Virus record (IMG/VR): IMGVR_UViG_2529292979_000027
DNA length: 6,365 nucleotides
Origin: a virus
Taxonomy: Duplodnaviria > Heunggongvirae > Uroviricota > Caudoviricetes
Direction: 5' to 3' (one strand)
This document shows, piece by piece, positions 1-3,000 of this stretch. Position 1 is the stretch's first letter. Each line of letters opens with the position of its first letter. A program made the position numbers.

Positions 1-3000
1 ATGCGCGAAATAAATGAAGATCGTGTAATCCGCGAAAAAGAATGCAGAGAGCTAACAGGCGTTTGCCGCACAACTCGTTACGAGATGGAAAAGCAGGGCC
101 GCTTCCCCTCACGTATCAGTCTCGGCGGTCGTTCTGTTGGCTGGGTTAAGTCTGAGGTTATGGAATGGGTTAAAAGCAGAAATCGTATTAATTCAGGTAA
201 GGCAGCGTAGGGGGAACATATGACACATAAAACAAAGGCGACCTGTGGCGGTCGCCAATGGGAAAACACTAAACATAAGCCCGAACATCATAGCGATTTG
301 CTGTCTGGTGGGCAATGTGCTCAGTGTGCTGGCTTGCTGGTGGGCTATTCCTGCTCTTTGGCCTTGCGGCGCTGGCGGCGTTTGATTTCGCCTTTAACGG
401 CAGTAACTATAAATTGCGCTTTGCTTTCACCTTCATCTAAATTTTTTTCTAAGTCTGCAACAACATCATGAGGGAATCTGGCATTTAACTGTTGCGACTT
501 ATTATTTGTTGAACCTGTTGCCATTACTGAATCCTCTCTAAGTTGGTGCGATTCAGTATACACAAAAAAAATTCAGAGAAAAGGCTTGAAGTGCGATTCA
601 CTTGCTGATAGGTTAAAAACAGATGGTGCGATGCACCAAATAACAACGCCCCGCAGTGGTGGCACACATGCAGGGCGTCTAACAACCAACGATAGCAACA
701 GTATCGAGGTAGCTATGTTAAATCATACCACACACCCGCAAGGGCGGGACTCGCACAACCTGAATAAATACATCTGGCGTTTTATCGCCCTGAGTACGGC
801 ACAACCGCGCGTGATTACCATTGAGGCCACCAGCGAACAGGAAGCACGCCAGCAATCCCCGGCTGGCTGCGTGATGGTATTCGCCGCCCGTATTCGTCAG
901 GGGGTGTGCCGTGCTTAAAACCTTCCGCGTTTTTTCCCGTGCTGTTAACAAGCGCGGCTATACCGTTGGCATCACGCAGAACGTGAAGGCCGTTAATATG
1001 CAAGCGGCGATTGATTCAGTAATCAGTAATTCCGGTAAAGCAGGTTTATCACATGTAATTATTGCAGCAGTACATGAATTAAAAGGGGGGCATTAATGAA
1101 GGAAATTACATTACACGAAGCCGCTGAACGTGCGCACCAGACAGAAATTATTTGCCGACTTCTTGAGGTGTACCCTAATAAATTAAATGATGGTGATATA
1201 TCCGCATTAGCTGGCCTTCTGGCAAAACTTTCTGGAAGTGTTGCGCTGTGGTTAATTGATGAGAGATTTAAACGCTATGAACAATAACAAACGCGTAATT
1301 TGCGAATTGAATGAACTCACACAAAGCGCAATATCTTACAACAATGCCGTAAGTGAGATTATTAACGTCTGGTTTGAATCGCTGACAAATTGCGAGCGTG
1401 ACGAGTCAACGACAAGATTAACCTTTGCCATTTCTGAATTACTGAATATTTCCACCAGCAAAATAGAGAGCATATCAGAGAAGATTAACGGCTTATCAGG
1501 TCACGCTATCGGAGAATAAAAATAATGAAACTTAAATATTCTGGCTTAACTGCCAGCGGCAAAACTCGCACTAAATTCATGTGCGGGGATATTTACCGCG
1601 ATAAGTACGGCGGCACGGTAATGATTAAGGGCGTGGAGGAACGGCGCGTAACTTACCGCCGTGAAGGCTACGAATATGATTGCGTTATGCCTGTTTATCA
1701 GTTCAACCGTGATTTTTCTCTGGTACAGGCAGCGCCCCGCAGTAAGCCAACCAGCAGGGAGAAAGCACGCGCCAATATTCAGGAAATAAAAAAGATGCTT
1801 AACGTATTCAGGGGTAAAAAATGAAACTGGCACCGAACGTAAAAAAACAGCCACGCGGAATAAAACACAAAGACACAGAGGTGATTATTTTCGCGGGTAG
1901 TGATGCGTGGGCACATGCAAAACAGTGGCAGGAGCAGGACGGCCCCGCATCCGGCGATAATGTGCCTCCTGTGTGGCTTGGGCCAAATCAGCTTGCCGAA
2001 CTTTATGCACTGCAAATTGTTCCTGATGGAAAAAAACGCGTAAGGCTGTACCAGGCAGGAGAACTGGACTTGGTGGAGACCAAAAAGATTGGTCAGAAGC
2101 TGGCGGCGGCAGGCGTACAGGATGCAAAATTTTACCCCGAAGGAATGCACGGTCAGAAGGTGGAGAACTGGCGCGAATATCTGGCCCGTGAGCGCCAGAA
2201 TCTTTCTGAAGGTCTGGTCGTTGAGCTTCCGGTAAAGCAAAAGGCGCAACTTTCGCAGATGGCGGACAGTGAACGCGCACAGATGCTTGCTGGTCGATTT
2301 GATGGCGTTTGTGTGCATCCGGAAAGTGAAATCGTTCACGTATGGCGCGGCGGGGTATGGTGTCCGGTCAGCACAATGGAACTTAGCCGCGAAATGGTGG
2401 CGATCTATTCAGAGCACAGGGCCACTTTCAGCAAACGCGTGATCAATAACGCCGTTGAAGCGTTAAAAGTTATTGCCGAACCAATGGGGGAGCCGTCCGG
2501 CGATTTGCTGCCGTTCGCCAATGGTGCGCTTGACCTGAAAACGGGGGAATTTTCCCCGCACACGCCGGAGAACTGGATCACCACGCACAACGGCATTGAG
2601 TACACGCCACCAGCACCAGGGGAGAACATTCGCGACAACGCGCCAAACTTTCATAAATGGCTTGAGCACGCAGCCGGAAAAGACCCGCGCAAGATGATGC
2701 GTATATGTGCCGCGCTGTACATGATTATGGCGAACCGGTACGACTGGCAGATGTTTATTGAGGCCACCGGAGACGGCGGGAGCGGTAAAAGTACATTCAC
2801 ACACATAGCCAGCCTTCTGGCAGGGAAACAGAACACCGTAAGCGCGGAGATGACATCACTCGATGATGCAGGAGGGCGCGCGCAGGTTGTCGGGAGTCGT
2901 CTTATCGTCCTGGCTGACCAGCCGAAATATACAGGCGAAGGAACGGGCATCAAGAAAATCACGGGCGGCGACCCCGTGGAAATTAACCCGAAATATGAAA

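Follow-up and report, generated by a model that had tools for sequence, protein, structure and literature searches.

A YlcI/YnfO-family gene with operator-like boxes as a candidate repressor in an enterobacterial phage-inducible island

Satellite phage P4 provides a described counterpart of the locus considered here. In P4, a 214-codon open reading frame (ORF), eta (8168-8812), overlaps the end of vis, the P4 homologue of alpA; Kil corresponds to the final 65 residues of its product. Within eta there is a constitutive promoter, Kil being a truncated product of eta, and translation of eta prevents termination of the late transcript (PMC10111431, summarising Forti et al. 1999). AlpA is also a known activator of Gram-negative satellites; the 2018 description of the Gram-negative islands holds that AlpA activates the island and leaves the global repressor unclear (PMC6092414). 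This article concerns a small gene at 345-524 on the minus strand of a 6,365-nucleotide (nt) stretch of viral DNA (Caudoviricetes; IMG/VR record IMGVR_UViG_2529292979_000027). This whole stretch, called the window below, is the left two-thirds of an enterobacterial phage-inducible chromosomal island. The gene, referred to as ylcI-like, encodes a 59-residue member of the YlcI/YnfO family by profile comparison. With moderate confidence, and from comparison of related loci, we read its product as a small dimeric ribbon-helix-helix (RHH) repressor that would act on the boxed promoter of an Icd/Kil-like gene and the replication genes.

Operator-like boxes and the protein that varies with them

The upstream region of the gene was aligned across related loci, and positional counts were taken over 72 of them. 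The repeats that the original prediction had reported between 546 and 634 are real: the window carries GTGCGATTCA twice (boxes O1 and O2) and GTGCGATGCA once (box O3), arranged on two putative back-to-back promoters (Table 1). O1 keeps its offset of 21 nt in nearly all loci, its core matches those of O2 and O3 in the same locus, and it is proposed to be an autoregulatory operator. O2 stands at offset 66 (65-67) in the great majority, the best match to O1 lying elsewhere in a few, and O3 is found in relatives at offsets 88-103 in either orientation. The layout that recurs is a 10-bp box 21 nt from the ATG, followed by AGTATAC, an A-rich stretch and cTTGA(A/C)G overlapping the second box; the box flanks, GTG...CA, are constant and the five central bases vary. 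At the offset of the putative leftward -10 hexamer, AGTATA occurs in 58 loci. TTG[AC] occupies the offset of the rightward -35 hexamer in all 72, and a TAnnnT hexamer lies 17-18 bp after it in 69.

In the window, O3 is enclosed by a perfect palindrome, TGGTGCgatGCACCA (624-638), and contains an ATG at 631. This ATG is a possible start for a 96-residue Icd-like form that PHROG 6196 would cover, and the palindrome scored as terminator-like on the minus strand. In the leader upstream of the Icd-like ATG at 716, a 10-bp inverted repeat (ACGCCCCGCA / TGCAGGGCGT, 13-nt loop, 646-678, plus strand) could form an RNA stem-loop; relatives carry a loosely similar motif at the peptide level, KP.S/G...T.G.L.T.

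The boxes vary in step with the predicted DNA-contacting strand of the protein. Compared within a locus, O1 and O2 show no more than a single mismatch in 76% of cases, against 0.7% across specificity classes. O2 mismatches amount to 1.26 between loci sharing residues 12 and 14 and to 4.61 otherwise, a difference reached in 0 of 2000 label permutations; these figures are inflated by co-inheritance, since gene and boxes are adjacent. Seven strands pair with characteristic boxes: SQQLNARFP (residues 12/14 Gln/Asn) with GTGCGATTCA, SQMTTVRIP (Met/Thr) with GTGTAT(T/G)TCA, SKKLEARVP (Lys/Glu) with GTGGCTGACA, SQKMSARVP (Lys/Ser) with TGGGTGCCA, SLQVSVRLP (Gln/Ser) with GTGGTGTTCA, SQQIVSRVP (Gln/Val) with GTGGCAT(T/G)CA, and SQSLTARIP (Ser/Thr) with GTGTAAGACA. 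Each pairing recurs in unrelated genera. For instance, the combination of the window is found in E. coli, Morganella, Proteus, Pectobacterium, Xenorhabdus and Citrobacter. SKKLEARVP and its box occur in both E. coli and Xenorhabdus, and a Pectobacterium locus (L062) has the one-residue variant SRKLEARVP, in which Lys12 and Glu14 are kept, with the same box. That residues 12 and 14 change with the box core fits the RHH mode of recognition, a comparative argument to which linkage contributes.

A natural swap of protein and boxes is seen between L001 and L003, two O157-type islands at the same site. Their integrase, a hypothetical protein and AlpA (WP_001075374.1) are identical and their downstream genes near-identical, while all three boxes differ (cores CGATT in L001 and GCTGA in L003). 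The YlcI-like protein of L001 is that of the window, and that of L003 is 65% identical to it. Window and L003 are identical over 180-390 and 691-780 and divergent over 391-690, a patch that comprises residues 1-45 of the protein together with the operators and promoters. The unit of exchange therefore appears to be the DNA-binding part of the protein with its sites, as is likewise the case in lambdoid immunity regions. The boxes cannot be read by AlpA, which is identical in the two islands. Both this swap and the concerted identity of the three boxes within each locus are independent of the co-inheritance effect. The comparisons support the view that the repeats behave as cognate operators of the ylcI-like protein on a divergent promoter pair.

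A different possibility is that the boxes act as RNA, like seqA, seqB and seqC of P4, or are read by some other island protein, with the small protein unrelated to them. P4 has repeated complementary RNA sites at the same position, and the perfect palindrome around O3 would suit such a role. In two E. coli tRNA-Pro islands (L005 3036-3221 and L006 3483-3671), moreover, the ylcI-like gene and its boxes are directly followed by isrK (seqA-like) and C4 (CI-like) RNA genes. It is because of these RNA genes that the boxed rightward promoter is placed at the position of P4 PLE, of which it would by analogy be the positional equivalent. However, an Rfam scan of the window gave no C4 or isrK match at E<=1, and none was found in 15 of 17 relatives tested; RNA immunity of the P4/P1 type was rejected for this element on the window scan. 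Neither O1 nor O2 would be part of the rightward RNA, since the predicted start is downstream of O1, and O2 falls across the -35 hexamer and the spacer. O1 and O2 are direct repeats rather than complementary sequences, and the boxes follow the strand residues of the ylcI-like protein, not AlpA. We consider an RNA role, or another reader, very improbable and retain the reading of the boxes as operators of the ylcI-like protein. L005 also has an Ash domain in the same long plus-strand frame.

Identity and predicted fold of the minus-strand gene

The minus-strand ORF has 59 codons, from the ATG at 522-524 to the stop at 345-347, and its product is MATGSTNNKSQQLNARFPHDVVADLEKNLDEGESKAQFIVTAVKGEIKRRQRRKAKEQE. 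The expectation of a convincing gene on this strand holds: it is a real, intact gene with its own Shine-Dalgarno sequence and terminator. The PHROG profile phrog_949 aligns residues 1-59 with positions 1-61 of 61 (E=3.5e-24), and NCBIfam NF041551 (YlcI_YnfO_N) aligns residues 9-50 with positions 1-42 of 42 at 63.3 bits against a cutoff of 30 (E=1.5e-17), which assigns the protein, by profile, to the uncharacterised YlcI/YnfO family. The databases yielded 134 homologues, mostly of 57-62 residues and beginning with MATG(S/T), whose sources include Escherichia, Klebsiella, Salmonella, Morganella, Proteus, Yersinia and Pectobacterium; one entry, that of E. coli OkiPb01528, matches the window protein at 100% identity. 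RefSeq annotates a 'YlcI/YnfO family protein' at the equivalent place in E. coli islands. A GTG further upstream, at 563, would lengthen the ORF to 72 residues. ATG 524 is nevertheless the supported start, because the phrog_949 match runs end to end, the homologues start with MATG(S/T), and GAGAGGA lies 7 nt upstream; a purine-rich complement is seen at this Shine-Dalgarno place in the aligned upstream regions of relatives. A Pfam scan of the window protein returned no family at E<=1. In a scan of 52 family members, Pfam DUF3950 (PF13132) matched only K-12 YlcI (E=1.9e-20), and the window protein gave no match.

The terminator that had been assigned to this gene at 228-256 is present as a motif: a GC-rich hairpin of seven pairs is followed on the minus strand by TTTGTTTT. 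Of 76 distinct related loci, 44 carry a site resembling a terminator on the gene strand in the first 160 nt downstream, against 13 on the opposite strand. Read-through on the plus strand would be unblocked at 228-256, because the hairpin is not followed by a T-run on that strand. Just beyond the stop codon of the gene stands a perfect Chi site, GCTGGTGG, at 336-343 on the plus strand, with a one-mismatch copy, TCTGGTGG, at 304-311, 32 nt before it; islands of several genera have the Chi sequence at the corresponding place, where the plus-strand frame reads it as the peptide 'AGGQ'. As candidate plus-strand protein motifs of the interval between alpA and the gene, 'KTKAxxxGRQ' and 'AGGQ' were rejected, being the terminator hairpin and the Chi site read as codons.

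An RHH fold is likely for the window protein, as judged from several independent and individually weak lines of sequence and model evidence. The RHH signature claimed at the outset stands in its topology and its G-x-S/T/N turn, while profile matches to curated or solved RHH proteins stay below threshold. An AlphaFold2 monomer model has an extended segment (1-18), a helix (19-30), a turn (E31-G32-E33-S34) and a second helix (35-58) at a mean predicted local distance difference test (pLDDT) score of 68.7. The same strand-helix-helix topology is predicted at pLDDT 93-97 in the second repeat of P0165, a distant relative that is a natural tandem of two repeats. In a 40-sequence alignment G32 is nearly invariant, E33 is invariant and position 34 is S or T; a G-x-S/T/N turn before helix B is typical and diagnostic of the RHH fold. 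Comparison with Arc by hhalign (probability 20-26%) pairs QLNARFPHDVV with QFNLRWPREVL and sets Gln12, Asn14 and Arg16 on Arc Gln9, Asn11 and Arg13, the residues with which Arc contacts DNA bases. Across the family Arg16 never varies, and positions 13, 15 and 17 are mostly hydrophobic or small; the alternation over residues 12-17 fits what is expected of a ribbon inserted into the major groove.

Profile searches point in the same direction. The Pfam families most often matched by the 52-member alignment are CB_ParB_C (8 members, best 2.7e-4), PSK_trans_fac (3) and RHH_1 (2), all of them sub-threshold and all presumably RHH families. The only PDB matches of two family profiles, 3NO7 (E=0.019) and 4ME7 EndoAI (E=0.025), are likewise sub-threshold and belong to structures that we take to contain RHH domains. 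No curated RHH model reached its threshold for the window protein in the profile scan, so that membership rests on convergent weak evidence. Phmmer and a close-family profile gave no match to PDB sequences, and Foldseek with the monomer model against the PDB returned only noise. A second protein search with the wide alignment again gave near relatives among the at least 120 matches listed and added no alignment depth. Directly after helix B the protein ends in a short basic tail, RRQRRKAKEQE. Long forms of 101-110 residues also exist (L004 2863-3168, L006 2873-3178 and L028; P0079, P0125 and P0128), in which a C-terminal extension supplies a second helix-B-like segment and ends in the same basic tail (...ELQRRKAKE).

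The original prediction had offered a master repressor or switch of the island as the possible role and had seen no toxin partner adjacent. The latter statement is wrong in spirit, as the divergent neighbour is Icd/Kil-like and homologous to P4 kil and P1 icd. The C-termini of relatives (...ILSLAARLPVLEV...) match P4 Kil (...VLSLAARLPVVEV...), and a direct BLASTP comparison of the Icd-like protein of the window with P4 is weak (E=0.1). With a homologue of a cell-killing gene next to it, the small protein might be an RHH antitoxin that neutralises the Icd/Kil-like toxin by protein contact and binds DNA for autoregulation only, the more so as RHH domains are common in type II antitoxins and distant members of the family match PSK_trans_fac, TacA1 and EndoAI. 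Yet the two genes are divergent and not co-transcribed, the basic tail follows soon after helix B, with no separate toxin-binding domain, and two of the three boxes lie on the Icd/Kil-like promoter, which points to transcriptional control. An antitoxin is improbable on these grounds, and a repressor or switch is the best-supported of the roles that the sequence comparisons suggest.

The overlapping plus-strand frame and the island around it

On the opposite strand, a long frame runs from the end of alpA, antisense through the ylcI-like gene and the operator region, and ends in the Icd/Kil-like gene, which forms its terminal part (Table 1). Over 1-918 this frame has stops only at 208 (the end of alpA), 469 and 916 (the end of the Icd-like gene), and a single TGA (469-471) interrupts it in the window. 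In relatives it is mostly open. Across the gene, 95% of 76 loci lack a stop in it, against 33-41% (maximum 53%) expected from resampling of synonymous codons, and the stops observed there number 0.07 against 0.87-1.02 expected. Beyond the gene, 80% of loci keep it stop-free over 120 nt, 79% over 200 nt and 76% over 300 nt, where the other plus-strand frames have 4-7 stops, and on the alpA side it is stop-free over 90 nt in 80%. In loci with a nearby alpA, the opening of the frame is mostly no more than a few tens of nt from the alpA stop, and in 14 of the 29 loci where the Icd domain was found, the two end at precisely the same stop. L001 has the frame unbroken, with 235 codons. In EcCICFT073 (L080 8752-10053) it reaches 434 codons, from 38 nt after alpA to the Icd-like stop; there it also runs antisense across an annotated minus-strand hypothetical gene (9243-9416). 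A continuous leader ORF is not universal, because in Pectobacterium and Dickeya islands (L010-L017) the open frame ends about 115 nt past the ylcI-like start and the Icd-like domain lies in another frame.

By analogy with P4, the plus-strand frame is best read as an eta-like leader ORF, in which translation rather than sequence would matter. Such a reading fits a stretch that is kept free of stops, yet whose translation across the ylcI-like gene is Cys/Ser-rich, matches no family and is less conserved than the minus-strand protein; the latter is always the better conserved of the two (66% against 39% in L023, 53% against 38% in L045). The third codon positions of both frames coincide, which is the most permissive phase of overlap, so that the ratio of nonsynonymous to synonymous substitution rates (dN/dS) cannot separate them; the frames were judged by stop-codon depletion, ORF boundaries and identity instead. 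The break in the window is a private variant of the source strain. The TGA of the leader frame is created by A471, a base that leaves Pro18 (CCT) of the ylcI-like protein unchanged; L001 has C at this position, and all 71 complete E. coli genomes that carry this 81-nt segment (430-510) are one base off the window, with 0 identical. The TGA may exert polarity on alpA-driven read-through.

The stop depletion raises a question about the gene itself, namely whether the minus-strand ORF is a mere shadow of the eta-like ORF and its 'YlcI/YnfO' label an annotation artefact. Openness of the plus frame inside the gene and for 120-300 nt past it would be explained in this way, the coinciding third positions leave dN/dS silent on the matter, and Pfam has no match for the minus-strand protein. 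The shadow explanation is nonetheless scarcely credible, since across genera the minus frame retains its ATG in a fixed place, its Shine-Dalgarno sequence and a product of 57-62 residues, possesses a strand-specific terminator and always encodes the better conserved protein, of which a distant member gives a confident strand-helix-helix model. The plus translation, by comparison, matches no family, and in the window it is the plus frame that is broken and the minus gene that is intact. The YlcI/YnfO family moreover occurs without an eta frame, as in ylcI of prophage DLP12 next to cos. Whether the plus frame from 220 to 471 might be the conserved one instead had been raised as an objection to the gene; sequence comparison indicates that both frames are maintained, and the conservation of one leaves the other unrefuted.

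Table 1. Features of the window discussed in the text, in order of position
Feature	Coordinates	Strand	Remarks
alpA (P4 vis homologue)	1-210	+	PF05930, E=7.9e-18
eta-like leader ORF (by analogy)	220-918	+	ATG 10 nt after alpA stop; frame shared with alpA and Icd-like gene
Intrinsic terminator of the ylcI-like transcript	228-256	-	Hairpin 256..237 and T-run 236..228 (terminator scan)
ylcI-like gene, 59 residues	345-524	-	ORF and family matches
Shine-Dalgarno sequence GAGAGGA	532-538	-	7 nt before ATG 524; reverse complement read from the sequence
Box O1, GTGCGATTCA	546-555		21 nt upstream of the ylcI-like ATG; abuts the leftward -10
Leftward (ylcI-like) promoter, proposed -10 TATACT	555-560	-	Putative promoter role
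Rightward promoter, -35 TTGAAG	586-591	+	
Box O2, GTGCGATTCA	591-600		Overlaps the rightward -35 by one base and continues into the spacer
Rightward promoter, -10 TAGGTT	609-614	+	17 bp after the -35
Box O3, GTGCGATGCA	626-635		About +5 to +14 of the rightward promoter
Icd/Kil-like gene, first of the rightward operon	716-918	+	NF033153 phage_ICD_like, E=3.9e-19; phrog_6196, E=2.6e-55
DUF4222	1525-1824		Window gene order
D5-type primase	1821-3575		Window gene order
Small terminase subunit, then major capsid gene			In the window, after the primase

The gene order of the window bears out the statement that the ylcI-like gene is convergent with alpA and divergent from the Icd-like/primase operon, in which several small ORFs lie beyond the Icd-like gene. 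A near-identical island is found between yljB/cspD and clpS in bovine and O157 E. coli. The ylcI-like gene is conserved, within the order integrase, alpA, ylcI-like gene (convergent with alpA), Icd-like gene and primase, in 76 related Enterobacterales islands including EcCICFT073. In RefSeq, E. coli islands likewise list an integrase, an AlpA-type regulator, a YlcI/YnfO protein on the opposite strand, an Icd-like protein, DUF4222 and a primase or RepA helicase; their integrases, attachment sites and replicases differ. A scan with one genome per species found 71 loci in about 25 Enterobacterales genera, in most of which the gene is flanked by AlpA and an integrase on one side, the other side being occupied by an Icd-like gene or primase. 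EcCICFT073 (locus L080) has alpA at 8526-8714, the YlcI/YnfO gene (C_RS30120) at 9474-9653 on the minus strand and the Icd-like gene at 9853-10053, and it carries the three boxes and the 434-codon frame along with the gene. Two further features of the island were seen. The C-terminal half of the Icd-like gene forms a second mosaic patch (781-900), 43-80% identical to L003 between flanks that are 100% identical. The int-alpA RNA motif (Rfam RF02996) lies between integrase and alpA in L008, L010, L023, L025 and L057; the window begins at alpA, and this interval thus falls outside it.

Proposed role and comparison with known systems

As proposed from the covariation, the N-terminal strand of the protein (residues about 11-17) would enter the major groove at boxes of 10-11 bp with the pattern GTG-N5-CA(C). 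Arg16, which is invariant, would read the constant flanks, and residues 12 and 14 (Gln and Asn here, as in Arc) the variable 5-bp core. To judge from their positions, O2 and O3 would straddle the rightward promoter of the Icd/Kil-like gene and the replication operon, and their occupancy would keep the island silent; O1 abuts the -10 hexamer of the gene itself, and autoregulation would follow. Induction may proceed as in P4. Helper-triggered transcription from the alpA promoter would enter from upstream and be kept alive by translation of the eta-like ORF, starting at the alpA stop. Running antisense across the repressor gene, this transcription would bypass the repressed promoter and may also lower repressor synthesis.

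Several points speak against this proposal. The leftward promoter has a weak -35 region, none convincing, and the Lys12/Ser14 class is discordant in having two different cores. Protein and boxes lie less than 100 bp apart, and their covariation is in part mere co-inheritance. The tandem model of P0165 formed no pseudo-dimer, its first repeat being without alignment depth. Induction of EcCICFT073 has also been explained through AlpA alone, with no repressor needed (PMC6092414). No published functional study of YlcI, YnfO or DUF3950 was found, and no mention of the ylcI-like gene was found in later papers on EcCICFT073, on phage-inducible chromosomal islands that form capsids (cf-PICIs), on EcCIMP1 or on helper-embedded islands, subscription journals being largely outside both searches.

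The protein might also bind the boxes in a capacity other than that of a maintenance repressor, such as an activator, an architectural factor, or a factor of DNA packaging or replication. Box positions alone do not fix the sign of regulation, and the published account of EcCICFT073 requires AlpA only. Family members in lambdoid prophages, furthermore, lie beside cos: ylcI of DLP12 (L002 8252-8446) is on the minus strand, immediately left of cos (GGGCGGCGACCT) and divergent from nohD. Against such a role, O2 in the spacer between -35 and -10 and O3 just past the -10 are in classic positions for occlusion, and neither terS nor the capsid genes are close to the boxes. Origins of satellites have been reported to lie together with the Primase/SSB genes of the replication zone, downstream of the boxes (PMC10111431). 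A non-repressor role is thus unlikely, and we continue with the ylcI-like protein as a repressor.

A wider proposal is offered tentatively, as one that may well prove too broad. Gram-negative islands including EcCICFT073 would have a master repressor, namely the YlcI/YnfO protein, and gene and operators would form an exchangeable immunity cassette in true antisense overlap with a leader that must be translated. Transcription starting at the alpA promoter on induction would then go around the repressed promoter and also, being convergent, turn off synthesis of the repressor. Relative to the original prediction, three elements would be new: the putative operator code, a cassette open to exchange, and a gene that overlaps an eta-like leader ORF in antisense. 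If the small protein is a repressor, Gram-negative satellites would gain one not yet assigned to them. Since the model element EcCICFT073 carries the module, the question can be tested in existing strains. From the pairing of residues 12 and 14 with the 5-bp core, a small recognition code that could be swapped is predicted, and an antisense frame that stays open over a repressor gene would be a rare example of selection on reading frames of both strands. Engineering of these islands as delivery vehicles is reported to be under way (PMC10460865), and a defined repressor-operator pair would aid it.

Parallels with known systems extend to different parts of the module. The K-12 DUF3950 proteins YlcI (DLP12) and YnfO (Qin) share with the window protein an NCBIfam family and the strand-helix-GxS-helix pattern, and K-12 ylcI also lies on the strand opposite to its neighbours. 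It differs in having 14% identity to the window protein in the alignment and in its location, which is in a lambdoid prophage next to cos and nohD instead of the interval from alpA to an Icd-like gene; by eye, no comparable box architecture is present upstream of it. The omega repressor of pSM19035, another RHH protein, binds contiguous 7-bp heptads cooperatively, whereas the boxes here are of 10 bp and lie 45 and about 35 bp apart. The locus resembles those of the Stl (Staphylococcus aureus pathogenicity island) and Rpr master repressors of Gram-positive satellites in the functional place of its candidate repressor gene, which in these phage-inducible islands diverges from the operon for excision and replication. 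Stl differs in being a much larger, unrelated protein whose repression is lifted by binding of a helper protein, whereas induction probably runs through AlpA here; we know of no anti-repressor for the ylcI-like module.

Immunity region I of phage P22 (immI; Mnt and Arc, Pmnt/Pant) is similar, on the proposed reading, in that a small RHH repressor gene is divergent from the operon it silences and the operators overlap back-to-back promoters; the Gln-Asn-Arg predicted to read bases aligns with Gln9/Asn11/Arg13 of Arc. The sequence similarity, at the hhalign probability given above, is not significant. The locus also departs from P22 in having three single boxes rather than one 21-bp operator of two half-sites, Icd/Kil-like and replication genes rather than an antirepressor as the target, and a repressor gene embedded antisense in a translated leader ORF. 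Phage P1 immI (c4 antisense RNA, icd and ant) has in common with it a tightly repressed operon in which an Icd-type inhibitor of cell division (NF033153) is the first gene to be translated. P1 relies for control on c4 RNA, for which no match is present here, with a protein and its putative operators in its place.

The correspondence with P4 lies in the succession of alpA/vis, a long coupled ORF (eta, or the eta-like frame that a TGA interrupts in the window), an internal promoter, a terminal Kil/Icd-like gene and a primase operon, and in the frame that relatives keep open across the whole interval. P4 differs in that its immunity depends on CI RNA and seqA in this interval, where Rfam finds C4 and isrK in P4, and in that it has no YlcI-like antisense ORF. 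By this analogy the module is most likely a protein-based alternative, and sometimes an addition, to the RNA immunity of P4.

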